Source: an uncultured Bacillales bacterium (lineage in GTDB: Bacteria > Bacillota_I > Bacilli_A > RF39 > UBA660). From it: 64,000 nt of DNA. Under the pieces are notes generated by a model. It was not told where the DNA came from and searched no databases. It saw only the letters and a list, made by a program, of their open reading frames with translations. Where the stretch lies: contig CAMNHK010000002.1 in NCBI GenBank assembly GCA_946539445.1, forward strand, positions 41,744 to 105,743, written 5' to 3'. Made by a program: the position numbers and the translations under genes. This document shows positions 11,264 to 37,508 of the stretch, piece after piece; position 1 is the stretch's first letter, and each line of letters begins with the position of its first letter.

Positions 11264-11273
11264 TTCCTAGTAA

Positions 11274-11570
11274 TTAATGATCTTGAACGGATCTTATATT
11301 ATTATTATTATAACTCAATCCTTGTTCTTCTGCAACTTCTTGAATCTTTGTTAAGGAAGCCAACTCATCAATGGTCATTTCTAACGACTCATTCGTCTTT
11401 TTTTGAATTTCAATTTCTTTCTTTTGCTTCTCTACTTCAAAATTTACTTTGGCTAAAGTTGCTTTAAAAAAAACAATAGAAATAGGAGCTATCACAACTA
11501 AAAAAACAGCCAAAGAATATAATAATCGTTCAAATTTTGATATTTTTACCTTTTGTTTAACTGTTTTCAT
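11274..11570 (-). CDS. ftsL: Cell division protein FtsL
   Basis: 98 aa, single TM helix plus coiled coil, ending EEQGLSYNNNNI. Canonical position between rsmH and the PBP gene. Confidence 0.8.
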   Translation of the reverse strand: MKTVKQKVKISKFERLLYSLAVFLVVIAPISIVFFKATLAKVNFEVEKQKKEIEIQKKTNESLEMTIDELASLTKIQEVAEEQGLSYNNNNIRSVQDH

Positions 11571-11581
11571 TTTTCCATCTC

Positions 11582-12954: not shown

Positions 12955-12992
12955 CCCCCACTTTTCACCACATTCAACCACTACCTACTCTA

Positions 12993-20378: not shown

Positions 20379-21827
20379 CTATGAATGAACTCCTTCTTTT
20401 ATCTTACGAGAAGCAACCGCATTATACGCTTCTTCAATATCATTAAAATAAATCGTTTGATCTTTTAATTTTTCATAAGTCTCATTTCCCTTACCAAGAA
20501 TTAAAACCATATCTTTCGCTTCTGCCATATTAATAGCTTTTTCAATGGCACTTCTACGATCAATTACAATTTCATAATTCGAATGAGTCTCTTTTAATTC
20601 CGCAATAATGTCATTGCAAATGTCCATCGGATCTTCACTTCTTGGATCTTCATACGTAAAGATTGCATAACTAGCATTCTCAACCACAACATTCCCAACT
20701 TTTGGCCTTTTATAAGGATCTCTCTCCCCTGCTTGACCAATAACGACGATACTACGATTTATATCTAACGTATGAACAAAGTTTAATAACTTAGCGATTC
20801 CATTAGGAGTATGCGCATAATCTACCATAACATAATAAGGAGTATTGGTATTTAACAATTCTAATCGACCACTTACTTTTATATTTTGAACTTTTTTCAA
20901 AATCATATCCATACGAAATCCAGCCGCTACGACACACAATAAAGCACAAGCTAAATTATAAACATTAAAGTCTCCCATCATAGGACTTTCTACATCCAAG
21001 ATTTCTCCCTTATAACGATATTTTATATTCGTATGATCTGGGAACAATTGAAAAGAAACAATTTGTAAATCATTATCTTCCCCTTTACCATACGTTAATA
21101 CCTTTCCATTGCAAGCCTCCTTTACTTGTTCAAAGTAAGGATCATCATGATTTAAAACACAATATCCATCTTTTTTCGTTTGTTTAAAAAGCATTAACTT
21201 ACACTGTAAGTAGTTTTCAAAAGATCCATGAATATTTAAATGTTCAGAAGTAATATTCGTATAAGCAGATATATCAAATTTCATAGCTTGTAAACGTCCA
21301 CGGAAGAAAGCTTCACTAGAAGTTTCAATAGAAGCATATTGGCAACCAAAATGAACAAACTCATCTAAATACAAATACAAATTTTGAGCATCTGGTGTCG
21401 TATTTGGATTATCTCCCGTAAAGGCCGCACAACTTCGACCATTCGTCCCAATATATCCACATAAATCACTACCAATTAAAGTCTGAATAATAGTCGTTAC
21501 ACTCGTTTTCCCATCCGTTCCCGTTACTCCAATCATCTTTAACTTTTGATCTGGATAATCATAAAACTTTTGACACAAATAAGGAAGTTCACGGTTCGTA
21601 TCAGGTACTTTAATCGTTGGCACATCTGGATCTTTAATATCACGACTAACAATTAAAGCACAGGCTCCATTTTTCTTAGCCTCTTCAATAAAGTCATGAC
21701 GATCCACGGTAACTCCCTTCGTACAGACAAACAAGTCTCCTTCTTCCACTTCTTTTGAATTAATTTTTATACCTTTTACTAAAATATCCACTCCAATACC
21801 GGGATATAATTCTTCTAATTTTTTCAT
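20379..21827 (-). CDS. murE: UDP-N-acetylmuramoyl-L-alanyl-D-glutamate ligase MurE
   Basis: GVTGTDGKTS P-loop and Mur ligase middle and C-terminal domains (DYAHTP, the ...YEDPRSEDP segment). The preferred ATG at 21825-21827 (MKKLEELYPG) has RBS AGGTGATGA. The longer track ORF would run into the divergent arginase gene. Confidence 0.9.
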   Translation of the reverse strand: MKKLEELYPGIGVDILVKGIKINSKEVEEGDLFVCTKGVTVDRHDFIEEAKKNGACALIVSRDIKDPDVPTIKVPDTNRELPYLCQKFYDYPDQKLKMIGVTGTDGKTSVTTIIQTLIGSDLCGYIGTNGRSCAAFTGDNPNTTPDAQNLYLYLDEFVHFGCQYASIETSSEAFFRGRLQAMKFDISAYTNITSEHLNIHGSFENYLQCKLMLFKQTKKDGYCVLNHDDPYFEQVKEACNGKVLTYGKGEDNDLQIVSFQLFPDHTNIKYRYKGEILDVESPMMGDFNVYNLACALLCVVAAGFRMDMILKKVQNIKVSGRLELLNTNTPYYVMVDYAHTPNGIAKLLNFVHTLDINRSIVVIGQAGERDPYKRPKVGNVVVENASYAIFTYEDPRSEDPMDICNDIIAELKETHSNYEIVIDRRSAIEKAINMAEAKDMVLILGKGNETYEKLKDQTIYFNDIEEAYNAVASRKIKEGVHS

Positions 21828-21927
21828 ATCATCACCTAAAAGTATTATACAGTAAAGTTTTTTCGAATAAAAGACTTTTCCTTGATAAGAACCATAATTT
21901 ACGTTAAAATGAATATGGTGATTATAA

Positions 21928-22833
21928 ATGAGAACAATGATATTTGGAGCAGGAACTGACTTAGGAGTACACATCGATGGAGCTTCTCTAGGACCCATTC
22001 AATTAATGAACGACTTACAAGCTTTTTATCAAGGAGAAAGCATGATGTTTTCACAAGATAAAGAAATTATTAAAAGTCGAAACTTATCCGATCGAAGAAA
22101 AAATGAATATGAAATTGAAAAATTCAATTCCAATCTATATAAAAACATAGTAGAAAAAATCAAAGAAGAATACTTTCCAATTATGATTGGAGGAGATCAT
22201 TCTGCAGCAATTGCTTCTGCCCTAGCATCTGCGAAAGCAAACATTGATGTAGGAATTATCTGGATTGATGCTCATACAGATTATAATACGTTTGAAACAA
22301 CGGTTACCGGAAACATTCACGGTCTTCCTCTTGCCGCTATTAATGGATACAAAAATCCAGAATTACGCTATTATCATGATGGGAAAATAATTCAAGCATC
22401 CAAAACCGTTATTGTAGGAGCAAGAAGCATTGATCCTGCTGAAAAAGATAATGTACGTTATTCCGGAGTAACAGTATTTACGACACAAGATATCAAAGAA
22501 AAAGGAATTGAAGCAGTCATGGACGAAGCCTTCAAAATAGCTGGTTACAAAACCAAAGGAATTCATATTAGTTATGATCTAGACGTAATTGATCCAGAAA
22601 CAGCACCAGGAGTATCTATCCCAGAATTTGATGGAATATCCGAAGAAGAAGCCATGAAAATCAATGAATATTTAGTAAAGCATATGAAAGACATTTTATC
22701 CTTTGATTTAGTAGAGTTTAATCCTCTACGAGACATTGATCGTAAAACGGAGCAAATTGCCTTAAATATTTTAGCACAAATTATTAAAGCAGCTGAAAAT
22801 AAAAAGAAATTTGAACAAAAAACATATTACTAA
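21928..22833 (+). CDS. Arginase-family ureohydrolase (arginase-like)
   Basis: 301 aa with G-G-D-H-S, W-I-D-A-H-T-D, G-N-I-H-G-L-P-L-A and S-Y-D-L-D-V-I-D-P, the Mn-binding motifs aligned with B. subtilis RocF from memory. Confidence 0.85.
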   Translation: MRTMIFGAGTDLGVHIDGASLGPIQLMNDLQAFYQGESMMFSQDKEIIKSRNLSDRRKNEYEIEKFNSNLYKNIVEKIKEEYFPIMIGGDHSAAIASALASAKANIDVGIIWIDAHTDYNTFETTVTGNIHGLPLAAINGYKNPELRYYHDGKIIQASKTVIVGARSIDPAEKDNVRYSGVTVFTTQDIKEKGIEAVMDEAFKIAGYKTKGIHISYDLDVIDPETAPGVSIPEFDGISEEEAMKINEYLVKHMKDILSFDLVEFNPLRDIDRKTEQIALNILAQIIKAAENKKKFEQKTYY

Positions 22834-23949: not shown

Positions 23950-23980
23950 CCACAAAAAAAAAGAATGTTCTCACATTCTT
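23950..23980 (-). terminator. Terminator after ftsZ
   Basis: Minus strand: AAGAATGT-GAGA-ACATTCTT hairpin starting at the ftsZ stop, followed by TTTTTTTTTGTGG. Confidence 0.85.
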
Positions 23981-25119
23981 TAAAAATTTCTATCTCTTAA
24001 GAAAGATGGCATTTCAATATCTACATTACTATTCATAGATCCTGAATCATCGTCATCATCCGCTTGAAGAACTTCTGGTTGATAAGAATAATCTTCACGA
24101 GTTGGAATTCTTCTAGAAGGTTGTGTATTACCAACTGGATAAGAATTATCAACTGGTTCCGCTTTCTTAGATTTATCAAATCCTGTTGCAATAACAGTAA
24201 CAATAACTTCATCATTTAAGTTTTCATTAATAACAGAACCAAAGATAGTATTAATATCTGTATTAGCAGCACTACGTACCACTTCAGCTGCTTGCTCTGC
24301 TTCAAATAACGTTAAGTTTACTCCACCAGTAATATTGATAATCGCATCGGTAGCTCCTTCAATAGAAGTTTCCAATAATGGAGAAGAAACCGCTTGTTTA
24401 GCAGCTTCTAAAGCTCTATCTTCACCCATACCAATACCAATACCGATAATAGCGCGTCCACTCTTTTCCATAACAGCTTTAACATCCGCAAAGTCCAAGT
24501 TAACAAGTCCAACAACAGCAATCAAATCAGATATAGATTGAACTCCTCGACGAAGAACATTATCAACTTCTTTAAAAGCTTCTAACATTGGAGTAGACTT
24601 ATCAATAATCTCTCTTAAACGATCATTTGGAATAACAATTAAAGTATCGACATGTTTCTTTAATTCTTCAATTCCAGCCAAAGCATTTTCCATTCTTCTT
24701 TTTCCTTCAAAAGAAAATGGTTTTGTAACAATGGCAACCGTTAAAGCTCCAAGCCCTTGAGCAATCTCTGCAACAACAGCAGCAGCACCTGTTCCAGTAC
24801 CTCCACCCATTCCGGCTGTAATAAATACCATATCAGCTCCACTAAGAGCATCTTCAATTTCTTTCTTAGATTCAACGGCAGATTCTTTTCCAACTTCTGG
24901 TTTTCCTCCAGCACCTAACCCATCAGTAAGAGTAGCCCCAATTTGAATTTTAACATCTGCTTTTGAAGTATTTAAAACTTGTAAATCGGTATTAGCAGCA
25001 ATAAATTCTACCCCTTTAACACCAGATTCTACCATTCGATTAATAGCGTTTCCACCACCGCCACCTAATCCGATGACTTTGATTTTCGCTAATTGATCCA
25101 TTTCTAATCCGCCTATCAT
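23980..25119 (-). CDS. ftsZ: Cell division GTPase FtsZ
   Basis: [27 protein letters not shown] (tubulin signature) and NLDFADV. RBS AAGGAGG lies 7 nt upstream of the ATG. Confidence 0.98.
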
Positions 25120-25131
25120 ACCTTTTCCTCC

Positions 25132-26367
25132 TTAACGATCGAGAAAGTGTCCAAACACTTTACTAAGCATATTTTCATTTGTAAGATTCGAATCAATTGA
25201 TAATAGTGTTTCAACATCCTCTTTACTAACCATATTATAATGTTTTCCTCTCAAGGATAACTTATCATCAAAATATTTTGTTATTCCGTAGCAACTACTA
25301 TATTGATTATGACGAACTCCCATAGTAGTCATTCTACATACTTTTGCTATAAAGCCAAATTCCTGTTCTACTAAGTACTGGAATCCAGCCATCTCACTCA
25401 AACCACCTGTTATAATTATATAACGTATTTCCCTATTTGTTAAGTTTTTTATTTCATTTTTCGCAAGTTTTAAAATTTCCCGAACACGAGCTTCCACTAC
25501 CTTAGAAACATTCAATTGATTTACTTCTTTTTTCGTATCTTTATCAATCGCAATTTCCCATATTTCATTACTATCTGCATAGCTAGACATAGCCATAGCA
25601 AATTTCTCTTTCATTTTACGAGATTCACTTAACTTGGATTTAAATACATAGGTAATATCTTTATCTACATAACAACTTCCAACGGGAAGCAAACTATTTT
25701 TGATTGGAATTCCTTTATTAAAAACCGAAACATTGGTAGCTTCTTCCCCAATATTAATAATAGCTCCTACTAATTCATCATATTTACGATTTTTAATCGT
25801 ATAATAATCCCCAATCGAAGTAAAAGCAATATCTACCGTCTCAATACCACTAAGTTTTAAAGTCTCTAAAATACGATACAAAGGTTCTTTTGGAACCGTA
25901 CTAATCACAACTCTAGTTTCTAGTACACTTCCCTTCATACCTTTCGGATCTCGAATGTTGGCATGATCATCTACCGTAAAACTAATAGGCATAGCAGTTA
26001 CCAACTCATCCGTAGAAAAATCCTGTCCCTTGATGGCATCTAATAAAACATTACTAACATCTAAACCAGTAATTTCGTTATAATCAATAATATTCGTAGT
26101 TCCTTGAATAATATCCATACGACAATTAGCCGGTGGAATACAAGCAACGGCTTTTACAATTTTAATTCCCAAAGAATCCTGAATTTGTTTTAAGGCTTTT
26201 TTGATACTAGCAACGGCTGCTTTGGTATCCGTTATAAAGCCATTTCGGATTCCGTTCGAAGGACTACTAACAGAGGCTAAAACATTAAATCTATCATTTA
26301 CTTTCTCAGAAACAACAATCTTTATACTACTTGTACCTAAATCGATTCCTGTATAAATATCACTCAT
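25132..26367 (-). CDS. ftsA: Cell division protein FtsA
   Basis: 411 aa, actin-like ATPase (IYTGIDLGTSSIKIVV, ITGGLSEMAGF). Immediately upstream of ftsZ. Confidence 0.95.
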   Translation of the reverse strand: MSDIYTGIDLGTSSIKIVVSEKVNDRFNVLASVSSPSNGIRNGFITDTKAAVASIKKALKQIQDSLGIKIVKAVACIPPANCRMDIIQGTTNIIDYNEITGLDVSNVLLDAIKGQDFSTDELVTAMPISFTVDDHANIRDPKGMKGSVLETRVVISTVPKEPLYRILETLKLSGIETVDIAFTSIGDYYTIKNRKYDELVGAIINIGEEATNVSVFNKGIPIKNSLLPVGSCYVDKDITYVFKSKLSESRKMKEKFAMAMSSYADSNEIWEIAIDKDTKKEVNQLNVSKVVEARVREILKLAKNEIKNLTNREIRYIIITGGLSEMAGFQYLVEQEFGFIAKVCRMTTMGVRHNQYSSCYGITKYFDDKLSLRGKHYNMVSKEDVETLLSIDSNLTNENMLSKVFGHFLDR

Positions 26368-26391: not shown

Positions 26392-26420
26392 ATTATACTA
26401 TATTTTCCCCTTTTTGCAAA
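26392..26420 (-). promoter_or_regulatory. Candidate ftsA-ftsZ promoter
   Basis: Minus strand: TTTGCA (26415-26420), a 17-nt spacer, then TATAAT (26392-26397), 24 nt upstream of the ftsA ATG. Confidence 0.6.
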
Positions 26421-26440: not shown

Positions 26441-27979
26441 CTATTTTTCTTCTTGGTAACTTTGATCCACATTAACATTCCATAAAGCCTCTAAATCATG
26501 AGAATTTTTATGAATTAAATCCGCACAAATCATCCCACTTAAAATGGAATGATCCATATTATTATAGGAATGAGTACCATTCCGCCCAATACAATATAAA
26601 TTATCAATCGTATCAATATAATTTCGCACAACATCAATATCTTTATAACTATCAAAGTAAGCCGGATAAGCCTTTTTTTCTTTAATAACGCAACTATCTA
26701 AAATAGTTCCATCATAAAATCCAATTTTCTTTAATTCTCTTTTGGCAATTTTCTTTAAATCCTCATCTGATTTTTTCCAAAAAGAATCTCCTTCTAAACA
26801 AAAATATTCCATACCAATCCACATCGTATGAATTGGATCCTCTACCATATAAGGAGACCAATTATTAAAAACTTGAACTCTTCCCACTTTAACGGAAGTA
26901 TCTTGAATATAAAGCCAATTATCAGGAATATTACCATGAATCGTCGCAACAGAAGAATTTTTTTCCAAATCTAGGTTAGGAACCAATACTCCTACAGTAA
27001 CAAAATCACGGTATGGCAAATGATTACTAACGTCTAAAACATTTTTAGGAACTGAATTCATCTCTTCTAATAAATCTTTCATCGGCATAGAAGAGACAAA
27101 CTGATCACAAGGCAAAACCTCTCTTTTACCCTCTTTTTCATAGGTGACATTCACAATCCTTTGATTTTTTTTATGAATTTTAACGACTCTACTATTTCGA
27201 TAAATCTCTCCCCCCATTTTTTCAATTTTATGGGCAAGTAATTCATAAAACTCACCAGGTCCTAATTTTGGATAATAAAAGTAATCCGTTAAACTAACTT
27301 CCTTTTTTGTATCTTTAATATGGAATAGTCTTTTAAAATAATCACTCAAAACTTTAGAAATGGATATTCCTTTTACTCTTTGACTTCCCCAACTAGAATC
27401 AATCTCTTTGGGACTTCTACCCCACAATTTTGTAGTATATCCTTTAAAAAACATTTCATATAATTCATTTCCAAAACGATTAATATAAAAGTTTTCTAGA
27501 TTAGACTCTTCCTTTTTCCATAAACTTGCTTTTAAATAGCTAAGTCCACATCGAAAAGTGGTTAATAACCCCATATTTCGTATTGTCTTCATCGTTAAAT
27601 TAACCGGATAGTCAAAAAACTTTTGATGATAATAAATACGCGAAATACGATTTCGGATAAGCATAGCATCTTCTTTTTCAGGATCTCTCTTACCATCATG
27701 ATAATCTCGATGAATTCCTAATAATTTTTCATCCAAGGCCGGTTTCCCCTGCATAGGTAAAATGTCTTTCCAAAAGTTTAAAACAGTCTCATTTTTTGTA
27801 AAAAAGCGATGCCCACCAATATCCATATGATTTCCATGATATTCTTCCGTTCTACTAATTCCTCCGACAATTGACTTCTCCTCTAAAATCGTGACATGGC
27901 AATCCTTATGTCCTTTTAATAAATAATAAGCACAAGTCAATCCCGCAGGGCCAGCTCCAGCAATAACGATATTCTTCAC
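26441..27979 (-). CDS. FAD-dependent oxidoreductase with UDP-galactopyranose-mutase-like motifs
   Basis: N-terminal I-V-I-A-G-A-G-P-A-G-L dinucleotide fold, D-I-G-G-H-R-F-F and M-F-F-K-G-Y-T-T-K-L-W-G-R-S-P-K-E-I. The last resembles the F-F-K-G-Y-T-x-K-Q-W-G segment of Glf (recalled, not aligned). The preferred GTG start at 27979 follows GAAGGTGG; the track start at 28015 is TTG. Confidence 0.7.
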   Translation of the reverse strand: MKNIVIAGAGPAGLTCAYYLLKGHKDCHVTILEEKSIVGGISRTEEYHGNHMDIGGHRFFTKNETVLNFWKDILPMQGKPALDEKLLGIHRDYHDGKRDPEKEDAMLIRNRISRIYYHQKFFDYPVNLTMKTIRNMGLLTTFRCGLSYLKASLWKKEESNLENFYINRFGNELYEMFFKGYTTKLWGRSPKEIDSSWGSQRVKGISISKVLSDYFKRLFHIKDTKKEVSLTDYFYYPKLGPGEFYELLAHKIEKMGGEIYRNSRVVKIHKKNQRIVNVTYEKEGKREVLPCDQFVSSMPMKDLLEEMNSVPKNVLDVSNHLPYRDFVTVGVLVPNLDLEKNSSVATIHGNIPDNWLYIQDTSVKVGRVQVFNNWSPYMVEDPIHTMWIGMEYFCLEGDSFWKKSDEDLKKIAKRELKKIGFYDGTILDSCVIKEKKAYPAYFDSYKDIDVVRNYIDTIDNLYCIGRNGTHSYNNMDHSILSGMICADLIHKNSHDLEALWNVNVDQSYQEEK

Positions 27980-28035
27980 AAAACCACCTTCTAAAGAAAG
28001 TATATCATATAACAAAAAAGAATTCTAAAAAACTC

Positions 28036-29469
28036 TTAGAATTCTTTCTTTTCTCCTATTTTATAGATTCGATAGTCTTCGAAAGAATAAGACTTCAAGG
28101 AAGAAGAATAAACCAGATCCAATTGATAATTTTGATCCAAATAATCAACGATTAGATTATCTTCCCAATTGTAATTCGTATAAACATAGTAGACCAAATC
28201 ATGAGAATCCACAAACTCCCCAATTTCCCTCATAACAGGCATATCATCTCGTTTTGCTTTCCAAACAATATAAGTAAAAAACTCTTTAGAATTTGGATGA
28301 TAAAATCGATTAGATGTATAAGGAATTAAAGAAGAACACATATGATCACAGTTACAAAGGATAATGGCATGATCCTCCACCTCTTTCTGGATGTATTTAG
28401 CCGTCTCAATCCCATTGGAATAAGGATATAAATAATCAAAAGAATAAGCTTTATAAACCGTAAAGCAAGAACAAATGGATAAAATAGATAAACCAATAAG
28501 GAAAGGTTTTGTAATGTCACTGGATAATAAGAATACACAAAATAAAAAGAGACTATACACCAAAGCGGATGAATAAATAGAAGCTCCTCCCAAAACAAAA
28601 TCGAGTAAAAATGCCATAAAAAAGGAAGAACACAAAAACAGCCAAAATACAAAACGATTGCTACGAAACATCCAAAATAATACAAAGACAAGAATACCAA
28701 ACGTTACAAATACAGAAAGAAAAGAATAATTGCACGTCTGCCCTGCTAAGAAAGAAAAGAAAAAGATAACGAAATTCGATAGTGAAAATTCCGTATTCAT
28801 TCTTAATCCATCATTTGGTACTAAAACAGGATAAAATTGGCCATAAAATAGAATTCCAAAGAATCCTAAAACAGCTAGTGCTTGATACATCTTCTTCCGA
28901 ACAGAGGAATCATTCTTTGAAAAATATATTTCATAAAAATAAAAACCAAAAACATGAAATCCTACAAAGCCAAACATTAATAAATGAGTATTTAATAAGA
29001 GTCCTAAAATAACCGCTAATAAAATTGGTTTTTCCTTGCGATAAGGAAATATCCAAACATAAAGTGTAAGCAAGAAAAAGATAAGGGAATAACTTCTACC
29101 AACAACACTAAATTCATAGAGAACTGGATAAGAAAACAAAATACAAAACTTAATCCAATCCCTTCCAGGAATTTTAAAAAGCAATAAGTACATAGAAAGA
29201 ATCATAAAAAAAGCCGAAAAAATATTTACAATAGAAGGTCCTACTCCTAATTTAACAAAGGGATATAACAAAAGATAATAAAAAATAGGATGTCCTTCAT
29301 AATGAGCATTTTGAAATATTTGCCATAAATTCATATCTCGACACAACAAATAAGATTGTGCCTCATCTCTCCAGTTTTCATGATGAAAAAACATAAAAAG
29401 GATACCCACACAATATAAAGCAAATAATCCAATTGTAAGCCATTTTCTTTTATTGAAACTCATAAACAT
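28036..29469 (-). CDS. Polytopic GT-C-like membrane protein (divergent member of the array)
   Basis: ~477 aa with ~11 hydrophobic helices. W-R-D-E-A-Q-S-Y follows helix 1 (a DE-type first-loop motif as in ArnT/PMT-type GT-C enzymes). Soluble C-terminal domain ends E-D-Y-R-I-Y-K-I. The start overlaps the upstream gene. Confidence 0.6.
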   Translation of the reverse strand: MFMSFNKRKWLTIGLFALYCVGILFMFFHHENWRDEAQSYLLCRDMNLWQIFQNAHYEGHPIFYYLLLYPFVKLGVGPSIVNIFSAFFMILSMYLLLFKIPGRDWIKFCILFSYPVLYEFSVVGRSYSLIFFLLTLYVWIFPYRKEKPILLAVILGLLLNTHLLMFGFVGFHVFGFYFYEIYFSKNDSSVRKKMYQALAVLGFFGILFYGQFYPVLVPNDGLRMNTEFSLSNFVIFFFSFLAGQTCNYSFLSVFVTFGILVFVLFWMFRSNRFVFWLFLCSSFFMAFLLDFVLGGASIYSSALVYSLFLFCVFLLSSDITKPFLIGLSILSICSCFTVYKAYSFDYLYPYSNGIETAKYIQKEVEDHAIILCNCDHMCSSLIPYTSNRFYHPNSKEFFTYIVWKAKRDDMPVMREIGEFVDSHDLVYYVYTNYNWEDNLIVDYLDQNYQLDLVYSSSLKSYSFEDYRIYKIGEKKEF

Positions 29470-30766
29470 CAAATTCCCCTATTGAATCAATTTTTACCGC
29501 ATTTTGAATAATAGTATTATATCCCTTTTTATCAATTTGAGAAAGAGTGATATCGTGAGGAAGTAAATATAGTTTTTCTGGATGATTTTGAATTTCCAAC
29601 AATAAAGTTTCACTACCATGATATCCATGATTTCCATAATTAACGATATCCAAAGAATCAAGTTTCTGATCCATCGCAATCTTATAAAAATAATTGTGAT
29701 CGGAAAAAACAACAAAATCACGACCATCTAAATAAGTAAGAATCTCTTTGGCATATGTCTTTTCTGCCGTTGAAAAATAGCGAAATTCAAAATGCAAAAA
29801 AGGATTCGTAAAATGAAAATCAGAAACAACATCCCTTCCCTCGATTCCAACAATTCCAAGGAAAAGAACGGTAATTAAAAAGACTCCTTGCTTCTTCCCT
29901 AGAAAAGAAAAAGAAAAACGTTCCATAAGGCAAAAAGCAAATAATAAGAAAACAAGCATTAAATGTAAAAAATCTATAATCGGAATTGCGAGAGAAAAAC
30001 CACATAAGTAATAAAAATAAGGGATTTTTTGAATCGACTTTTTCATAAAAACAACACTAAGAATAATCATCAATAACAGTAAACCAAAAGACCATAGAGA
30101 AAAAGACGTATTATGATCCCCAAAATCCAATAATCCTAAGAAACAATAATTGAAGTATTCAAATAAAGAATGGGTAATCAAAAAATAAAAAAGGAAAAGC
30201 AAACTAACACTAACAAATCCATAAACTCGCTTTTTCCAATTACAGTTTTTCAAAAAGAAAAGAGTTGGAAGGCATAGCAAAAATCCCGTACTTTGTTTGG
30301 TAAAAAAGCAACAGGCAATCACAATACCAATCAACCAATCTTTATAAGAAAAAGAACTCTTTTCTAAAAAAACAAGAAACAAAATACACATAACAACAAA
30401 TAAATTATAAGAAGGAGAAATAAGAGCCGGAAACATCACGCAAAGAAGAAGTCCTAAAAACATTTTATTGGAATACATCTCTTCCATCAAAGCAAAAAAA
30501 CAAGTTAATAAAACAACATGAAACAATAAATAGGAAAACAAAGAATTAGAAACAAGTAATGGTATCGTCATTAGAAAAGGATAAAAAGGTCCAACTACTA
30601 AATTAAAATCTCGATATAAAACTTCTCCTTTTCGAATCGCATAACTAAATCCATAATTCCATAACTCATTGGAAGTCAAAGGAGAAAGATACAAGCAATA
30701 AAACAAAAGAAAAAAACTAAGAATGATATAACGAATTATATTTTTATTCTTTGTAAAAAACATCAT
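29450..30766 (-). CDS. Polytopic GT-C-like membrane protein, paralogue 1 of 4
   Basis: 438 aa with WNYGFSYAIRKGEVLYRDFNLVVGPFYPF after helix 1, T-K-Q-S-T-G mid-membrane, and C-terminal NYGNHGYHG...FDVYEFQ. RBS GGAGGGAG. Confidence 0.6.
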   Translation of the reverse strand: MMFFTKNKNIIRYIILSFFLLFYCLYLSPLTSNELWNYGFSYAIRKGEVLYRDFNLVVGPFYPFLMTIPLLVSNSLFSYLLFHVVLLTCFFALMEEMYSNKMFLGLLLCVMFPALISPSYNLFVVMCILFLVFLEKSSFSYKDWLIGIVIACCFFTKQSTGFLLCLPTLFFLKNCNWKKRVYGFVSVSLLFLFYFLITHSLFEYFNYCFLGLLDFGDHNTSFSLWSFGLLLLMIILSVVFMKKSIQKIPYFYYLCGFSLAIPIIDFLHLMLVFLLFAFCLMERFSFSFLGKKQGVFLITVLFLGIVGIEGRDVVSDFHFTNPFLHFEFRYFSTAEKTYAKEILTYLDGRDFVVFSDHNYFYKIAMDQKLDSLDIVNYGNHGYHGSETLLLEIQNHPEKLYLLPHDITLSQIDKKGYNTIIQNAVKIDSIGEFDVYEFQ

Positions 30767-32066
30767 AATATTCTCCCTCCTCTATTTTTGGATAATGCTG
30801 ATAAAAATAATCAACAATCGTATAATCCATTTGTGAAATATAATCTCGATTATAATAAGTGCTTTTCGTCACAATATAATACGTATCATGAGATTCCTGA
30901 ATCATAGAAAGAATTCGATTCGTTCCCTCTTTTCCATAATTTCCAGTAAGTAACATATCAAAATAAGTAATAGGGCGATTTAAAACCATATCATATTTCG
31001 TACTAAAAAAATCAATCATATAAGAATTCGGATATTTCTGATAAACATCCAAGACATTCCAAAATTCCTTTCGATAAGAAGAAGGAACTAGTTGAATCGC
31101 GAATGGTTTTTTCCCTAAAAAATTACAATCTTTATAATAAGAAATATTTAAATAATAATACATCCCTAAACTTCCCAAAAAGATAAGAATTCCAAGAAGT
31201 GTATAAGGAATCGGAAAAGAGAAAATCTTATCTCCCAAACAAAATAAGAAAAAAACAAACAAATAGACAAAATGAGAAATATCCATGATGGGAATCACAA
31301 AGCAAAAAGCTCCCAACAAATAAAAGGCTTCCATCTTTTTCTCTTTGAATAACCAAAAAAGAGTAAAGAAGAAAAAGACAATGCTAAGAAACGTAATAGA
31401 AGAAAAAGACAAATGATTTTGATTTGAAAATTGAAATAAACCCATAAAGCATAAATCGAAAAAGGAAGAAAGACTATGAGTACATAATAAATAAAGAAAA
31501 AAAGCGCCACAAGGAATCATCGCAAAAACTCCTCTTAAAACTCCCCTCTTCCATTGAAAAGTAGAAATCATAGATAAAAACAATATAGGAATACCAATCG
31601 TATGCTTAGTCAAAATAAGAATTCCTAAAAGAATACCAATAAGACGATCATCGACCCATTCCTTTTCCGCCACAACAATCCATACAAGAAGAAGAAAAGC
31701 CATAAAATTATAAGAAGGAATAAAAAGTTGAAATAAAAAAACACAAGAGATTCCTAAATAAAAAACCGTTCTCTTCGCTTGCCACTTATAAAGAAGATAA
31801 AAAAGAAAAGTAAAAAGGCCTGCATTAACACATAAATAAACAAAATAAGAATCATAAACAGCTAAAAACAAAGCATGAAAAAAAGGATAAAAAGGCGTCG
31901 TAATAATATTAAAATCCAAATATGGCACTTCACCTAATACAATTGCATGAGCCATTCCATATTCCCAAGTAGCATCAAACAACATACTTGGAGAAAGAAA
32001 AAGGAAAAGAAAAAAAACAACAAAAAAACAAATTAGATAAGCATAATTTCGACGAAGAAATTCCAT
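30744..32066 (-). CDS. Polytopic GT-C-like membrane protein, paralogue 2 of 4
   Basis: 440 aa with WEYGMAHAIVLGEVPYLDFNIITTPFYPF, LTKHTIGIPILFLSMISTFQWK, GNYGKEG and an ending of YDVFYKE. Confidence 0.6.
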   Translation of the reverse strand: MEFLRRNYAYLICFFVVFFLFLFLSPSMLFDATWEYGMAHAIVLGEVPYLDFNIITTPFYPFFHALFLAVYDSYFVYLCVNAGLFTFLFYLLYKWQAKRTVFYLGISCVFLFQLFIPSYNFMAFLLLVWIVVAEKEWVDDRLIGILLGILILTKHTIGIPILFLSMISTFQWKRGVLRGVFAMIPCGAFFLYLLCTHSLSSFFDLCFMGLFQFSNQNHLSFSSITFLSIVFFFFTLFWLFKEKKMEAFYLLGAFCFVIPIMDISHFVYLFVFFLFCLGDKIFSFPIPYTLLGILIFLGSLGMYYYLNISYYKDCNFLGKKPFAIQLVPSSYRKEFWNVLDVYQKYPNSYMIDFFSTKYDMVLNRPITYFDMLLTGNYGKEGTNRILSMIQESHDTYYIVTKSTYYNRDYISQMDYTIVDYFYQHYPKIEEGEYYDVFYKE

Positions 32067-32075
32067 AATATCACC

Positions 32076-33404
32076 TTATTCTTTATAGTAAACATCATAG
32101 TTTAAAATAGAATCTATTTTTTTAGAATGTTCCACAATATATCGTAAAACATCCAAATCAAATTGCCCCTCATCGATTCCATTTTCATATAAACCACTAC
32201 GAATGAAAAAAGTAGTATCGTGAAGCATATCCACCCTATTTATCATTTTTTCAGTCCCATGATATCCATAATTACCTTTCAATAAAACATCAAAATAAGA
32301 AATAGGACGATTACTCATCAAATCAAACATAATAGCATCCGAATCAATCATATAAACCGAATCATAAGAAGAATAAGCTTGATATAGACTTTGTATCTCC
32401 TGCTGACGTTTCTCTTCTACGACCATATAACGAAAATGAGGCTTCTTCAAAAAAGTAAGATTTTGAAAACTCATAGGCATCAAAAGATAGTAAACAATCA
32501 AAAAAACACTCAAAAAAACATAGCTCATTCTTCGAACATATAACTCTGGTAAAGAAAGATGATCCAAATAAAATACAAGTAATAAAGCGGCTAATAATCC
32601 AACATGATAATAATCAAAAATAGGAATACAAAAAGAAAAAGCAGCAAATGCATAATAAGATTCCTTTCTTCGAATATTCCTAATAAAGGAAATAAGAACC
32701 AAAAGAAAGAAAAAGGCCGTAAGAAACATAAAACCATTTAAAGAAGAATGATTCTTCTCTCCAAAATCCAATAATCCCATAATACATAAATCCCAAAAAG
32801 AAGAAAAACTATTTTCAAGAACTAAAATAAGAAGAAAGACTAAACAAGGAAGAGTCGCTCCTAAAAACCGTTTCCAAATCTTTTTCCATTGAAACGTACT
32901 AAGAAGAGATAAGAATAATACCGGTAAACCAATCGTATGTTTCGTCAAAATAAGAATCCCTAAAACAAAGCCAATCCAATAATCTCCTTTTTCCTTTTTC
33001 TCCATCCAATATAAAACAACAAGTAAAAAGAAAGCAAAAAAATTATAGGTAGGATTAAAGGGTAAAAAAAATGGCAAAACAAGAACAGGTAAAAGAAGCC
33101 ACCCTTTTTCTCCATGCAATTGAAAAATAAAATAAAACATCAAAACAACTAAAATAGTTTGCTCCAAAAAGAACATAGAAATATCATCATAAAGAAATAA
33201 ACCAATACTCATAAGATAAGAGTAAAAAGGAGTACTAACCGTATTAAAATCAACATAAGGAATCTCTCCCATACGGATTGCATGACTAAATCCATAATTC
33301 CATAAAACATCATAACTGCAATTTTGATGAAAAAAAACAATATAAAAGAACAGGAACAAAAAAAACAATATAAAATATTTACCATTATGACGAATAAAAT
33401 CCAT
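32076..33404 (-). CDS. Polytopic GT-C-like membrane protein, paralogue 3 of 4
   Basis: 442 aa with WNYGFSHAIRMGEIPYVDFNTVSTPFYSY, LTKHTIGLPVLFLSLLSTFQWK, GNYGYHG and an ending of YDVYYKE. Confidence 0.6.
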   Translation of the reverse strand: MDFIRHNGKYFILFFLFLFFYIVFFHQNCSYDVLWNYGFSHAIRMGEIPYVDFNTVSTPFYSYLMSIGLFLYDDISMFFLEQTILVVLMFYFIFQLHGEKGWLLLPVLVLPFFLPFNPTYNFFAFFLLVVLYWMEKKEKGDYWIGFVLGILILTKHTIGLPVLFLSLLSTFQWKKIWKRFLGATLPCLVFLLILVLENSFSSFWDLCIMGLLDFGEKNHSSLNGFMFLTAFFFLLVLISFIRNIRRKESYYAFAAFSFCIPIFDYYHVGLLAALLLVFYLDHLSLPELYVRRMSYVFLSVFLIVYYLLMPMSFQNLTFLKKPHFRYMVVEEKRQQEIQSLYQAYSSYDSVYMIDSDAIMFDLMSNRPISYFDVLLKGNYGYHGTEKMINRVDMLHDTTFFIRSGLYENGIDEGQFDLDVLRYIVEHSKKIDSILNYDVYYKE

Positions 33405-33409
33405 TTTCT

Positions 33410-34756
33410 CTACTCCTTATAATAAATATCATAAACCCCTATTCTCTTTACTTTTTTACTATGTTCTACCACATATTCTCCTAACTCCACGATATATTGT
33501 TGATTTACATCTTGTTTTTCCAATAAAGTATAATCCAAAACGAAATAACAATCATGTTGTTGATTAATCCTAGTAAGCATTTTATCAATTCCATTATAAC
33601 CATAATTACCATAGTTTGGTAAATCAAAATAAGACAATCGATTGGAATGAATGATTTGAAAAAAATAATTTTCAGATCCTCGCATAAAATAATGAACATT
33701 CGAAGGAAGAGAATCAACATACTCCAAAAAATCCTTCGTTTGTTTTTGATAACTTTCTCGATTAATCACCCAAGAAAAATGAGAATAATTAGAAATAGTT
33801 GGATGGTCTAAATACTGAAAAGAAACAATCCCCCACAAAAAACAAATCAAAAGAAAAACAGGAGTCAAAACCCAATACCCTTTTTTAGAAAAGGAAATGG
33901 AATCTAAAAAAAGATAAAGAGGAAGAATGAAAAACAAACAAACATGATAATAATCAATAATAGGAAATACAACACTACTAAATAATAAGACATAATACAA
34001 AGAAATATCTTTTGGATTCTTAATAATTCGAAATAGCAAATAAAGAATTCCTATTAAGAATAAAAGAAAATAAAACCAATCAACTTGCTGATTGCTTTTT
34101 TGAAAATCAAATAGTCCTAAAAAGCATAAATCTATAAAGGAAGAAAAATTTCCCAGAAAAGCAAATAAAAGAAGCATAATAGCAATCGGAATACAATATC
34201 CTAACAGCATCTTAAAAAACGTCTTTGGTTGTTTCACTATATACCAAAAACTAGGTATAAACAATACAATCCCAATCGTTTGCTTCGTACAAAAAATAAG
34301 TCCTAATAAGAATCCCAACAAAAGAGGATTCTGATTCTTTTCCAAGCCTAAATAAAAAAGGAAAAATAAAAATACGAGTAAAAAATTATATCCTGGAAAA
34401 ATAGTCGATACCATAGCAATAGGATATGGAAGTAATAAAAGAAAAAAGAATAAATAAACCTTATGCTGCAGTTTCTTTTTCAATAAGAAAAATAATATGG
34501 TTAATAAACAAGCTTGTTCCAAATAAAACATAATAATATTATTAAAAAGAAATAAACCAATAGAATATAAAAAAGGAGCCAAAGGAGTAATTACCATATT
34601 AAAGTCTAGATAAGGAATCTCCCCCATTCGAATGGCATAACTAAATCCATAATTTACAAAAGTATCTCCACGAGATAGTGTAAAAAGAAAAACTAAAGAG
34701 AAGAAAAAACACAAAAAAACAAAGACAACTGGTATAGTTTTCCGAATCCATTGCAT
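33410..34756 (-). CDS. Polytopic GT-C-like membrane protein, paralogue 4 of 4
   Basis: VNYGFSYAIRMGEIPYLDFNMVITPLAPF, C-T-K-Q-T-I-G, NYGNYGYNG and an ending of YDIYYKE. The preferred ATG at 34756 (MQWIRK...) follows GGAGGGGA; the track start at 34786 has no RBS. Confidence 0.6.
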   Translation of the reverse strand: MQWIRKTIPVVFVFLCFFFSLVFLFTLSRGDTFVNYGFSYAIRMGEIPYLDFNMVITPLAPFLYSIGLFLFNNIIMFYLEQACLLTILFFLLKKKLQHKVYLFFFLLLLPYPIAMVSTIFPGYNFLLVFLFFLFYLGLEKNQNPLLLGFLLGLIFCTKQTIGIVLFIPSFWYIVKQPKTFFKMLLGYCIPIAIMLLLFAFLGNFSSFIDLCFLGLFDFQKSNQQVDWFYFLLFLIGILYLLFRIIKNPKDISLYYVLLFSSVVFPIIDYYHVCLFFILPLYLFLDSISFSKKGYWVLTPVFLLICFLWGIVSFQYLDHPTISNYSHFSWVINRESYQKQTKDFLEYVDSLPSNVHYFMRGSENYFFQIIHSNRLSYFDLPNYGNYGYNGIDKMLTRINQQHDCYFVLDYTLLEKQDVNQQYIVELGEYVVEHSKKVKRIGVYDIYYKE

Positions 34757-34826
34757 AAAATCCCCTCCATTTTTCACTTCTATCATACCATATTTTAATC
34801 GAAAAAAAAAAGAAAGTTATACTCAA

Positions 34827-35516
34827 CTATTCTTTTATTTGAAAATGATTTCCGTTATCCAAATACAAAATTCCTTTATGATTTTCCACTTGAGTTAAAA
34901 CCTCATTATAATGATTGATAAGTTTAAACTTCGTTAAAGTAACAAAAACCATATTTCCATCATCCATATATAATAAGAAACGATCTTTATCATAATCATT
35001 GGGTTTATACTCAATATCACTAATTTTTGATAAAACATTTGCTTCTACTCCATCCATACATTCTACAAACTTAGAATATTTGGTATCAGGAACATAATTC
35101 AACAATCTTGGAACAAGAAATTCTTGACTGATAGAATCTTCTAAAACGGAAGTTTTATCTTGAAATACATATTTATTTTGATTCAAATCAAAAAACAATG
35201 GTTTTTCTTCTTGAATCTCCAATTCAAATAAAAATTTGTATTTTTTTCGTAATTTTGCTTTCTGTATATAAGGAGACGTTTCTAATTTCTTTTGTACTTT
35301 ATAAGAATTTGTAAAGAAGAAATTCGGATAATCTTTGATACCTCCTAGTTCTAAAATCATATCATCCTTTAAATAAGAAGTATTCAAAATAACAATATTT
35401 TGAACAGGAGTTTGTAAAAAGAAATACAAGCCAAAAAATAGTGCTAATAACAATACTAGTACTAAAAGAAAATTACCAATCTTAATTCTTTTCTTTTCCA
35501 CTATTTTTTTTCCCAT
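34827..35516 (-). CDS. divIB: Cell division protein DivIB/FtsQ
   Basis: 229 aa. Basic N-terminus, one TM helix, a POTRA-like segment (VQNIVILNTSYLKDDMILELGGI...) and position after murB. Confidence 0.8.
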   Translation of the reverse strand: MGKKIVEKKRIKIGNFLLVLVLLLALFFGLYFFLQTPVQNIVILNTSYLKDDMILELGGIKDYPNFFFTNSYKVQKKLETSPYIQKAKLRKKYKFLFELEIQEEKPLFFDLNQNKYVFQDKTSVLEDSISQEFLVPRLLNYVPDTKYSKFVECMDGVEANVLSKISDIEYKPNDYDKDRFLLYMDDGNMVFVTLTKFKLINHYNEVLTQVENHKGILYLDNGNHFQIKE

Positions 35517-35518
35517 TT

Positions 35519-36427
35519 TTACTCCCAGTTAACAAATTCTTGTTCTATTTTTAAATCAATACCATTTTCTTTTAACACGGTGTCATGAGCTAAATCAATT
35601 AAATATTTCACATCTTCCGCACTAGCATGATTGAAATTCACAATAAAATTAGCATGCTTATCACTTATTTTAGCTCCCCCACGTTTTTTACCTTTTAAGC
35701 CAGCGTCTTCTATAAGTTTACCAGCAAAACCACCTTCTGGATTTCGGAAAACACTACCAGCAGAAGGATATTCCAAAGGTTGAGATTCAATTCGTCGATT
35801 TCGTCTTTCTTTCATTACTTCTTCAATAGCTTCCCGTTTTCCTTTGTGAAGGCGGAAAATAACTTCTAAACAAATATAATCTGGATGTTTTTGCAAGAAA
35901 GAAGTACGGTAATGAAAATCCATTTCTTTATTCTCTAAACGAATAATTCGAAAATCAGGCGTTAAAACTTTCACACTCTCAACTACATATCCCATATCCG
36001 ATTTGTAGGCACCAGCATTCATAAAAACACTTCCTCCTACACTACCAGGAATACCAGATGCAAATTCCAAACCAGTATATCCTTTTTTAGCCGCTAAGAA
36101 ACTCAATTTAATAAGAGAAAAACCAGCTCCTACACGAATCTTATAACGTCCAAAAAACTCAACACGATCGAGTTCGGATAGTTTAATTAAAACGCCTTCA
36201 AATACTCGTCCACTAAACAATAAATTAGATCCATTCCCAATAACTTTATAAAGAATATTTTCTCTCTTCAAATAACGAAGAAGTTTCACTAAACTAGTAA
36301 TACTTCTAGGATAGACAACACATCTCGCGATTCCTCCCACACGATAAGTAGTCATTTTCTCAATAGAAACATCTTCTTCTACTTTTCCAATATTTAAATC
36401 TTTTATTTCTTTTATGACTTCTTTCAT
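35519..36427 (-). CDS. murB: UDP-N-acetylenolpyruvoylglucosamine reductase MurB
   Basis: TTYRVGG, GNGSNLLF, PGSVGGSVFMNAGAY and AGSVFRNP. The preferred ATG at 36427 lies just after the murG stop, with AGGTGA acting as RBS. Confidence 0.95.
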   Translation of the reverse strand: MKEVIKEIKDLNIGKVEEDVSIEKMTTYRVGGIARCVVYPRSITSLVKLLRYLKRENILYKVIGNGSNLLFSGRVFEGVLIKLSELDRVEFFGRYKIRVGAGFSLIKLSFLAAKKGYTGLEFASGIPGSVGGSVFMNAGAYKSDMGYVVESVKVLTPDFRIIRLENKEMDFHYRTSFLQKHPDYICLEVIFRLHKGKREAIEEVMKERRNRRIESQPLEYPSAGSVFRNPEGGFAGKLIEDAGLKGKKRGGAKISDKHANFIVNFNHASAEDVKYLIDLAHDTVLKENGIDLKIEQEFVNWE

Positions 36428-36431
36428 AAAA

Positions 36432-37508
36432 TCACCTAATAATCTTTCTAGCTTCTTCATAAATTCTAGTTGCGGAATCAACAATTCCTAGTTTACGACT
36501 ATTCTCAACCATCTGATTGTACTTTTTAGAATCATCCAATAAATCATCGATTTCTTTTAGTATTTTCTCAGCCGAAAACTCATCTTCCGTCACAATAACA
36601 CAGGCTCCTGCTTCTTGTAATTCTAAAGCATTCTTATATTGATGATTATTGGTAACGTAAGGAGAAGGTACCAATATAGCCGGAAGGCCAATCGCCGTTA
36701 TTTCAGCAATCGTACTAGCTCCAGCCCGAGAAACAATCAAATCAGAATCCTTTAAAACTTGAATCAAATCTTCCATAAAAGGAACAATTTGTACGTTAGA
36801 AGATGGTTTTAAATCCTTGTACTGATCATAATAATTCCGTCCTGTTATGATTAAAACTTGATAATCTTTTGTTTGAAAACCAGGAATCAATTCTTGAATC
36901 TTCTGTGTCATAGTAACACTTCCCAAAGATCCCATGACAATAACAACTAATTTTTCATCTTTTTGAAATCCTAAAGACTCCTTCTTTTTAACTGGAACAG
37001 ATAGGATTTCTTCACTACGAGGGTTTCCTGTATAAACAACCTTATCCTTTGGAAATAAATTCATACTATTGGGTAAGGAAACACAAATTCGATTGGCAAA
37101 ATTTCCAATAAATTTATTAGATAATCCCGGAACCGAATTTTGTTCATGAATAAGCACCGGAATATGACATTTATGAGCGGCATATAAAACGGGCGCTGTA
37201 ATATATCCACCAGCTCCAATAACCAAATCTGGCTGAAATTTTAATAATTCTTCTTTAGCTCTTCGGACAGCTTTCAAAAACATAGAAAGCACACCAAAAT
37301 TAGAAAAAACATTTTTTCGATTTAATCCACTCATCGGAATACCAACGAAAGGAATTCCTAATTTAGGAATCAAATCTTTTTCCATACGGTCATCCGTTCC
37401 TATATATAAAAATTCACTATCTGGTTCTTTTTCTTGAATTTTATGCATAATCGCAAGAGCGGGATAAATGTGTCCGCCTGTTCCGCCAGCTACAACAACA
37501 ACTTTCAT
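36432..37508 (-). CDS. murG: Lipid II synthase MurG (UDP-GlcNAc transferase)
   Basis: AGGTGGHIYPALA N-terminal G-loop, HEQN, and RAGASTIAEITAIGLPAILVP. Confidence 0.95.
   Translation of the reverse strand: MKVVVVAGGTGGHIYPALAIMHKIQEKEPDSEFLYIGTDDRMEKDLIPKLGIPFVGIPMSGLNRKNVFSNFGVLSMFLKAVRRAKEELLKFQPDLVIGAGGYITAPVLYAAHKCHIPVLIHEQNSVPGLSNKFIGNFANRICVSLPNSMNLFPKDKVVYTGNPRSEEILSVPVKKKESLGFQKDEKLVVIVMGSLGSVTMTQKIQELIPGFQTKDYQVLIITGRNYYDQYKDLKPSSNVQIVPFMEDLIQVLKDSDLIVSRAGASTIAEITAIGLPAILVPSPYVTNNHQYKNALELQEAGACVIVTEDEFSAEKILKEIDDLLDDSKKYNQMVENSRKLGIVDSATRIYEEARKIIR

Follow-up and report, generated by a model that had tools for sequence, protein, structure and literature searches.

In a 64,000-nucleotide stretch of the genome of an uncultured Bacillales bacterium of the RF39 group (contig CAMNHK010000002.1; this whole stretch is called the window below), the interval between the cell division genes divIB and ftsA holds five tandem genes for polytopic membrane proteins, named here G1 to G5, followed by a flavoprotein gene, FLAV. 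Our collective results suggest that the products of these six genes probably constitute an extracytoplasmic glycosylation line that draws on undecaprenyl-phosphate sugars and serves to build or decorate a wall glycopolymer or lipoglycan. Its components would be the four paralogues G1-G4, the sister-family protein G5 and the UDP-galactopyranose mutase (UGM)-like FLAV, all encoded in a murG-murB-divIB-...-ftsA-ftsZ block of division and cell wall (dcw) genes, a placement which would tie their expression to wall and septum synthesis. The genes of the interval are the following:

G1, 33410-34786 as the longest open reading frame (ORF), 458 amino acids, minus strand: polytopic protein of predicted GT-C fold at the first array position.
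G2, 32076-33404, 442 amino acids, minus strand: predicted GT-C-fold protein, the modelled representative of the G1-G4 family.
G3, 30744-32066, 440 amino acids, minus strand: predicted GT-C-fold paralogue.
G4, 29450-30766, 438 amino acids, minus strand: predicted GT-C-fold paralogue, its start overlapping the end of G3 by 23 nt.
G5, 28036-29472, 478 amino acids, minus strand: predicted GT-C-fold protein of the sister family of G1-G4.
FLAV, 26441-28015, 524 amino acids, minus strand: FAD-binding, UGM-like protein.

The initial annotation of this DNA had described five consecutive minus-strand genes of about 440-480 codons between divIB and ftsA, with junctions that overlap or are shorter than 10 nt. 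We find the same five, as ORFs of 438-478 amino acids separated by 5, 9, -23 and -23 nt; FLAV, the sixth gene of the interval, which follows G5 after 20 nt and is separated from ftsA by 73 nt, had been overlooked. The G1 product most likely starts at the ATG at 34756 (33410-34756, 448 amino acids), which is preceded at 5 nt by a GGAGGGG Shine-Dalgarno sequence, and G5 probably starts at the ATG at 29469, as a 99% identical database protein is 477 amino acids long.

Structure prediction gives an indication of function. All of the top 16 Foldseek matches of the G2 AlphaFold model (pLDDT 94.1, pTM 0.93, built on a 69-member alignment) in the PDB were GT-C glycosyltransferases, and its structural matches included ArnT (E 2e-4, TMq 0.52-0.55), AglB, STT3, PglB, ALG12, ALG6, ALG9, EmbA, EmbB, EmbC and PimE. 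The G5 model (pLDDT 94.5) matched ALG12 (3e-4), ArnT (TMq 0.60), STT3, DPY19, PglB, AftA, EmbB, ALG3, AftD and Pmt1/2. Top hits of both models were GT-C enzymes only (probability 0.8-1.0, TMq up to 0.60), and no transporter, Wzy or O-antigen ligase was found among the significant ones; moreover, neither the top 50 Foldseek matches of either model nor the Pfam searches with G1-G5 revealed a Wzy, O-antigen ligase or SEDS protein. Sequence relatives point in the same direction: 22 of the 69 aligned family members match the Pfam family GT87 (PF09594) and 7 of them PMT_2 (PF13231) at E < 0.01, some relatives reaching 25-36 bits against cutoffs of 25 (GT87) and 26.1 (PMT_2) over residues ~58-215, i.e., transmembrane helices (TM) 2 to 7. 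These models and relatives support the interpretation of G1-G5 as GT-C-fold enzymes put forward in the initial annotation. Weak local Foldseek matches to Rossmann-like methyltransferases (G5 probability up to 0.96; G2 at most 0.4), which probably reflect the small C-terminal alpha/beta domain, were not used as functional evidence.

ArnT (GT83; PDB 5ezm, 5f15) is the best structural match of G2 and the second best of G5 (TMq 0.52-0.60, probability 1.0). It transfers L-Ara4N from undecaprenyl phosphate to lipid A. The window proteins resemble it in combining a TM bundle with an outside C-terminal alpha/beta domain and in the Asp, Lys and His-type residues that are conserved near the outer leaflet, but they share only 10-12% sequence identity with it and no profile match, possess 11 instead of 13 TM, and belong to a Gram-positive host without lipid A.

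The predicted topology places the conserved residues where an extracytoplasmic enzyme would need them. With helices taken from the model and charges counted over the 69 family members, the cytoplasm-assigned loops contain 17.8 Lys + Arg per 56 residues and the outside-assigned loops 4.2 per 101 residues; given this positive-inside skew, we assign 11 TM (GT-C superfamily proteins have 7-13), an N-terminus inside, and loop 1 and the C-terminal domain outside. This is consistent with the helices and the soluble C-terminal domain noted initially (11 predicted TM and an alpha/beta domain of ~130 residues) and with the extracytoplasmic position proposed for the acidic first loop. Among 186 array copies from 59 genomes, Y120, K155 and N378 are present in all, H267 in 185, N121 and Q414 in 183 each, D32 in 180, N54 in 178, N218 in 176, D52 in 174 and D213 in 168. 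Every strongly conserved polar residue falls on the predicted outer face: D32, D52 and N54 in extracellular loop 1, Y120-N121, K155, D213, N218 and H267 elsewhere on that face, and an invariant G-N-x-G motif together with Q414 in the otherwise variable C-terminal domain, also predicted outside. G1 keeps D32, D52, Y120, N121, K155, H267 and N378. Thus, conserved acidic residues do exist in loop 1, but they are D32 and D52 rather than the glutamate of the G-E-x-P-Y motif (E47) that had been stressed, as this is found in 109/186 copies only. An acidic residue in an outside-facing first loop, by which the GT-C superfamily is recognised, is accordingly a predicted feature of this family. Mean pairwise identity is highest in loop 1, loop 4 and TM2-7 (40-47%) and lowest in TM8-11 and the C-terminal domain (27-28%), a pattern that would fit a common donor chemistry with differing acceptor recognition.

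G1-G4 had been called close paralogues, a term that does not apply to proteins of 28-37% pairwise identity, G1 and G2 standing at 37%. The motifs listed for them are largely present, with a V instead of W at the first position of the first motif in G1; likewise, of the C-terminal motifs, G4 has N-H-G and ends in FDVYEFQ, and G3 ends in YDVFYKE. G5 is divergent, as had been stated: it shows no significant BLAST similarity to G1-G4 and is linked to them by profile-profile comparison only, over its full length (hhalign, probability 98.3%, E 1.7e-14). Its family (64 homologues, no Pfam annotation) has the 11-TM and C-terminal-domain architecture of G1-G4 and invariant W34, D36 and E37 just after TM1; D36-E37 aligns with the D32 position of G2, and the C-terminal domains align too. 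A third polytopic family without annotation, family X, is homologous to both the G5 family (probability 97.2%) and the G1-G4 family (95.9%) and occurs in the divIB-ftsA slot of 12 loci.

The G1-G4 family has neither a name nor a curated model. G2 has 152 homologues in the word-indexed database, all unnamed or 'hypothetical' and from uncultured gut Bacilli, and an exhaustive profile search gave 1,857 representatives of 50%-identity clusters, of which 682 had E ≤ 1e-30. Since near-identical as well as many diverged homologues of the array ORFs exist in the database (E down to 1e-286), these ORFs are not chance occurrences. The databases do hold equivalents of the array, yet only as unnamed or hypothetical proteins of uncultured metagenome-assembled genomes. 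The enzymes are of a known kind, given the GT-C superfamily and multi-component glycosylation, but they make up families without a curated model, their conserved arrangement is new, and they are accompanied by a flavoprotein-GT-C cassette that had gone unnoticed.

FLAV belongs to the NCBIfam family PRK07208.1-2 ('hypothetical protein'; 688 bits over the full length, the cutoff being 418) and matches Amino_oxidase and NAD_binding_8 in Pfam. UGMs account for 25 of its 28 PDB sequence matches, including all the best, and the shared segments comprise the FAD-binding N-terminus with a GGH loop, 'ELYExFFKGYTxKxWG' and the C-terminal 'GRxGTxxYxxMD'. With its 524 amino acids it is longer than the matched bacterial UGM (Glf) chains (367-399), and it differs from them in being a member of an uncharacterised family that is gene-coupled to polytopic GT-C genes. 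FLAV-type genes gave >8,000 matches, with identities of 52-73% among the top 120. In all seven contexts examined beyond the dcw slot, a polytopic GT-C-like gene adjoins FLAV, often with a stop/start overlap; in 6/7 the partner is of the G5/X superfamily, and GtrA is adjacent in 2/7. The seven contexts are:

L077: GtrA, followed by FLAV (which the gene call divides into two) and a G5-type gene.
L081: FLAV followed by a G5-type gene.
L082: an LPG_synthase_TM protein, a 420-amino-acid protein, FLAV, then a G5-type gene.
L083: FLAV followed by two X-type genes.
L084: FLAV followed by an X-type gene, amid LtaS, LCP, Wzy-like, GT2 and rml genes.
L085: a 541-amino-acid polytopic protein, GtrA, FLAV, then a 533-amino-acid polytopic protein of another type.
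L086, 3256-8969: a stand-alone four-gene cluster of a G1-4-type gene, a G5-type gene, FLAV and an X-type gene, on a 22% GC contig of another lineage.

As neither divIB nor ftsA lies within 6 kb of the L086 cluster, the four families travel together independently of the dcw cluster. These contexts suggest a functional tie between FLAV and the GT-C superfamily, and FLAV together with a G5- or X-type GT-C protein is a candidate extracytoplasmic hexofuranosylation cassette. The two polytopic proteins of L085 (3886-5511 and 7554-9155) carry 'H-x-D-C-x-D-T' just after the first hydrophobic helix; they match none of the G1-4, G5 and X profiles and may represent a further GT-C-like family. The flavoprotein at L079 is of the DAO type and unrelated to FLAV, and this locus was left out of the association.

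The array is embedded in a same-strand gene block with the following flanks:

divIB (FtsQ-type POTRA; Pfam POTRA_1), 34827-35516, minus strand: upstream flank, conserved in 63 loci.
murG and murB, 35519-37508, minus strand: ORFs with conserved synteny, the upstream genes of the block.
ftsA and ftsZ, 23980-26367, minus strand: ORFs with synteny kept in 63-67 loci, downstream flank.
Sigma-70-like hexamer pair, 26392-26420, minus strand: located in the 73-nt FLAV-ftsA spacer, 10/12 consensus matches.

The shared strand, the short or overlapping junctions, the conserved synteny and the lack of terminator-like sites all support a putative co-transcription of the array with murG-murB-divIB. A minus-strand scan from murG to ftsA found no terminator-like hairpin, in agreement with the earlier statement that there is none between the divIB stop (34827) and G1; the 70-nt divIB-G1 spacer (34757-34826, minus strand) contains a T10 run with no GC-rich stem before it and was not called a terminator. 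Rfam and tRNA scans of the window were empty, hence no known riboswitch or leader occurs in the operon gaps. The promoter proposed in front of ftsA does exist as a hexamer pair but cannot be told from background: promoter-like sites are rarer in the real sequence (54) than in shuffled sequence (68), so the pair has no statistical weight, and the scan itself has no discriminating power in AT-rich DNA such as this. It is a possible internal ftsAZ promoter; another promoter-like site lies upstream of murG, at 37598-37570. Across 28000-34000, the plus strand has a strongly positive AT skew (0.26-0.34) and a slightly lower GC content (28-30%), which we do not read as foreign origin because the Phe, Leu and Ile codons of minus-strand membrane-protein genes are T-rich.

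To place the array in its lineage, we mapped the window proteins onto 76 distinct loci (L001-L076, one genome per species); as these loci were found by matching the G1-G4 family, the survey is biased to family-bearing genomes. Nearly all of them show the order murG-murB-divIB-[family copies]-ftsA-ftsZ, and the slot is filled in 58 related loci with both flanks, i.e., in 59 arrays including that of the window, which carry one copy in 3 cases, two in 13, three in 25, four in 8 and five in 10. The cluster that corresponds to the G1 subfamily stands first in 17 arrays, in the middle in 9 and last in none, and another cluster stands last in 17 of 20. The order G1-G2-(G3)-G4-G5 is kept in L004, the closest relative, which lacks G3, and in L038, where G3 is present in the same place. 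This conserved order, along with the position-biased clusters, implies that the duplications are old and the paralogues differentiated. L004 possesses an X-type gene that the window lacks, and the window a G3-type gene that L004 lacks. The GT-C genes diverge much faster than their neighbours: identity to L004 is 81% for MurG, 86% for MurB, 76% for DivIB, 86% for FtsA and 93% for FtsZ, and within the interval 72% for FLAV, 43% for G1, 40% for G2, 47% for G4 and 39% for G5.

Given these findings, we postulate the following scheme. The donor would be an undecaprenyl-phosphate sugar made by an unlinked GT2-type synthase, as suggested by the fold and by the contexts of relatives, and flipped by a likewise unlinked GtrA- or Wzx-type flippase; each GT-C enzyme would then transfer a sugar to an acceptor outside the membrane. 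The paralogues are old, keep a fixed order and retain the residues of the catalytic face, while TM8-11 and the C-terminal domain are where they vary most; hence, each probably contributes its own residue or linkage to a single polymer, either one after another or in parallel. The acceptor would most likely be a secondary wall glycopolymer or a membrane-anchored lipoglycan. G5 and FLAV would make up a cassette of their own, separable and widely distributed, whose probable task is the supply and transfer of a furanose, for which galactofuranose is the obvious candidate. Use of a lipid-phosphate-sugar donor by G1-G5 is indirectly suggested by the GtrA, GT2 and DUF2304 neighbours of distant relatives. 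Elsewhere, G5- or X-type genes adjoin GtrA, GT2+DUF2304, GT2-GtrA fusion, LCP, LtaS, Wzy-like and rml genes; for instance, a G5-type gene stands beside a GT2+DUF2304 pair, PMT_2 and GT_STM0557_N at L079, and beside a GT2-GtrA fusion and rml genes at L080.

Such a line would resemble the multi-component systems reviewed for Gram-positive bacteria, namely CsbB/GtcA/YfhO, GtlA/GtlB, CsdAB, CsdCD, CsdEF and GacI/J/K/L (PMC8035078). These also rely on a polytopic GT-C protein with an acidic motif in an outside loop, the known ones use C55-P-sugar donors to act on wall polymers, the systems have little sequence similarity to one another, as is the case here, and the distant G5-type relatives beside GtrA, a GacI/J-like GT2+DUF2304 pair or a GT2-GtrA fusion recall their composition; the array paralogues can be likened to the several parallel Csd, Gtl and YfhO systems of Firmicutes. 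However, the array has no linked GT-A or flippase gene, comprises up to five tandem GT-C paralogues instead of one, keeps a position inside the division operon that is fixed across the lineage, and involves, in G1-G4, a family without a Pfam model, most characterised proteins being YfhO or PMT_2. The mycobacterial GT-C enzymes of lipoglycan and arabinogalactan assembly (PimE and MptC type of GT87, EmbA/B/C, AftA-D) offer another likeness, as several paralogues act in series outside the membrane on one polymer with polyprenyl-phosphate sugars; Emb, Aft and PimE are among the structural matches, and in sequence GT87 and PMT_2 are the only Pfam families that relatives reach, the window proteins themselves missing the GT87 threshold. 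The mycobacterial proteins belong to another phylum, have large carbohydrate-binding modules that are absent here, and their genes, unlike the array, are not tandem in the dcw cluster. For G5-FLAV, the closest parallel is the three-component GT136 system of Citrobacter youngae (ORF12-15), in which a GT-C enzyme adds a pentofuranose extracytoplasmically (PMC11127046). Both would combine a GT-C protein having an outside C-terminal domain with a dedicated donor-modifying enzyme and a flippase, but the GT136 donor derives from phosphoribosyl pyrophosphate via a polyprenyl-phosphoribose synthase and epimerases, while a UGM-like FLAV would imply a nucleotide-sugar hexofuranose route.

Several observations weigh against this scheme. 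None of G1-G5 matches Pfam even at E ≤ 1, leaving the GT87 and PMT_2 thresholds unmet by the window proteins, and none matches NCBIfam; PDB sequence-profile searches with alignments of 5, 69 and 50 sequences likewise gave nothing meaningful. The Foldseek TM-scores are only moderate (0.5-0.6). Two paralogues deviate at near-invariant positions, G3 having Q in place of D213 and G4 having N, followed by E, in place of D32. FLAV stays below the UGM cutoffs (15.3 bits against 26.3 for GLF, PF03275, and 38 against 304 for TIGR00031), and this apparently UGM-like flavoenzyme could catalyse a different flavin reaction. The chief weakness is the lack of linked GT2 and GtrA genes: the 64-kb window contains no GT2-like undecaprenyl-phosphate-sugar synthase (Pfam searches of 17 ORFs, inspection of N-termini, and a motif scan covering all 59 ORFs), which may be encoded elsewhere in the genome, and no GtrA-like small ORF, and no GT2 synthase or GtrA recurs within 10 kb across the 76 loci, where the recurrent neighbours are housekeeping and dcw genes. 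The Gram-positive systems characterised so far usually have their GT-A gene next to that for the GT-C enzyme.

Among the alternatives, the one that survives best concerns the role of the array rather than its chemistry. Comparable to gtr-type O-antigen or teichoic-acid glycosylation cassettes, the genes might serve surface-glycan diversification under phage or host-immune pressure, the dcw site being an incidental, permissive and highly expressed location. An identity of 39-47% between genomes against 76-93% in the flanks, a copy number of 1-5, gain or loss of G3- and X-type genes between close relatives and several GT-C families in one slot would all be expected in this case. Nevertheless, the subfamilies are old and keep their order, and no mobile-element genes or phase-variation signals were seen in a search that was not exhaustive; a copy is also present in each of the 59 arrays, which is not independent evidence, as the loci were found via the family. 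We regard diversification as the driving role as unlikely.

The acceptor could also be a protein. Oligosaccharyltransferases and PMTs are among the top structural matches, and the array adjoins divIB, so that the GT-C enzymes might O- or N-glycosylate extracytoplasmic proteins such as those of the divisome or of wall synthesis. There is precedent in Streptococcus mutans, in which GT-C enzymes glycosylate FtsQ; the Pgf/PgtC systems of streptococci target Ser/Thr-rich tails of FtsQ, PBP1a, PrsA and PknB (PMC12041528). However, acceptor tails of this streptococcal type, sought as stretches of ≥48% Ser + Thr in 25 amino acids, were found in 0/55 window ORFs and 0/64 DivIB orthologues. Up to five diverged paralogues along with further GT-C families fit the building or decoration of a glycan better, and the partner contexts elsewhere (rml, LCP, LtaS, Wzy-like) are of the polysaccharide or teichoic-acid type. 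Protein glycosylation thus appears distinctly improbable.

The fixed position beside murG, murB and divIB, within the dcw block of 58 related genomes having both flanks, would be explained if the enzymes acted on peptidoglycan directly, adding sugars to the MurNAc or GlcNAc of lipid II or nascent strands, or attaching a polymer. Some GT-C enzymes, i.e., the oligosaccharyltransferases, do use undecaprenyl-diphosphate-linked donors, and Pfam searches of 17 ORFs, with visual inspection of the rest, revealed no SEDS (ftsW), mraY or murD gene within the 64 kb. Against this, GT-C enzymes are not known to us to act on peptidoglycan; core peptidoglycan enzymes do not show such fast divergence or a copy number that varies from one to five, L086 has the gene set at a distance from dcw genes, and a normal class B penicillin-binding protein (PBP) and a Mur ligase are present in the window. 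We consider direct peptidoglycan chemistry very unlikely. That the proteins are non-enzymes, i.e., transporters or structural membrane proteins resembling GT-C, is hardly credible: although the window proteins have no direct Pfam, NCBIfam or PDB sequence match, their significant structural matches are all GT-C enzymes, relatives reach the GT87 and PMT_2 thresholds, and polar residues of the outer face are invariant across 186 copies, as an active site would be.

Returning to a glycosylation line for a wall glycopolymer or lipoglycan, RF39 bacteria are predicted to be mostly walled, with peptidoglycan present, and to have lost the standard wall and lipoteichoic acid pathways (PMC10868615). A far-reaching form of the scheme, which we hold to be possible but doubtful, is that the G1-G4 family is the core machinery of a division-coupled, lineage-specific wall glycopolymer or lipoglycan replacing teichoic acids, and that FLAV with a G5- or X-type GT-C protein (and GtrA) constitutes an undescribed, widespread extramembrane hexofuranose route from a lipid-linked donor. 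A conserved array of several GT-C paralogues at a fixed place in the division operon is thus a concrete candidate for the secondary wall polymer machinery that RF39 seems to lack, and it would probably also help to determine how phages and the host immune system recognise these bacteria; RF39 and relatives are prevalent uncultured small-genome gut Bacilli whose envelope is known only from gene inventories (PMC10868615). The G1-G4 family, if characterised, would probably found a new CAZy GT-C family. Additionally, the FLAV and GT-C cassette is found well beyond the lineage, including in cultivable Firmicutes, which suggests an unrecognised extracytoplasmic furanosylation pathway; a literature search found no paper on a module that unites a UGM-like protein, GtrA and a GT-C enzyme, none on the PRK07208 family and none on a GT-C array within a dcw cluster.

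The divIB-ftsA slot of some relatives holds further envelope genes:

L022 and L027: a PMT_2 GT-C protein.
L019: a DUF6056/GT_STM0557_N protein.
L039, 12683-15198: a CDP-alcohol phosphatidyltransferase and an LtaS-like sulfatase-fold enzyme.

In other relatives (L052, 11439-14359, and L076, 16853-19844), the slot contains an unannotated protein of 457-481 amino acids with the N-terminus 'SFRDPSGYIYY', followed by a membrane protein of 516-518 amino acids. The L039-, L052- and L076-type contents hint at phosphodiester-linked substituents. Stand-alone copies of the G1-G4 family at L021, L035 and L041 lie among housekeeping genes and are uninformative. The synteny shared by the loci extends upstream to TmcAL-like, gmk and pyk genes and downstream to an arginase-like gene, a Mur ligase, VanZ, a MOP flippase and a sigma factor. 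Two loci come from named organisms, 'Mycoplasma sp. CAG:877' and Candidatus Faecimonas intestinavium, and Candidatus Faecimonas corresponds to GTDB CAG-877 in the order RF39, family CAG-611 (PMC8035907); the other loci have broad labels only, and from the shared synteny we infer that they belong to RF39 as well, these two being the only ones named as its members. The same synteny puts the window organism in or near this clade. Contigs at L006, L056 and L066 are labelled Acidaminococcus fermentans or Muribaculaceae but display the same murG-murB-divIB-array-ftsA-ftsZ synteny, and are probably mis-binned or mislabelled.

Besides the array, the window has genes for a Mur ligase, for a class B PBP that contains PASTA domains and for a polysaccharide deacetylase. 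Its dcw cluster is split and rearranged, with mraZ-rsmH-(gap)-class B PBP located ~11 kb downstream of ftsZ on the same strand (9110-12981, minus) and the Mur ligase ~2 kb downstream of ftsZ (20379-21998, minus). A MOP-family (Polysacc_synt) protein is encoded ~5 kb downstream of ftsZ (17435-18853, minus), at a position kept in at least 21 related loci; it could be a lipid II flippase or a flippase for lipid-linked sugars. A gene for a sigma-70-family factor with regions 2 and 4 (16706-17395, minus) adjoins that of the deacetylase, which has Ig-like domains (15213-16652, minus), also downstream of ftsZ, and this neighbourhood resembles the sporulation sigma-factor surroundings of ftsAZ in Bacilli. 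Finally, an ORF of 1,235 amino acids occupies 1618-5325 (minus strand) at the low end of the window.

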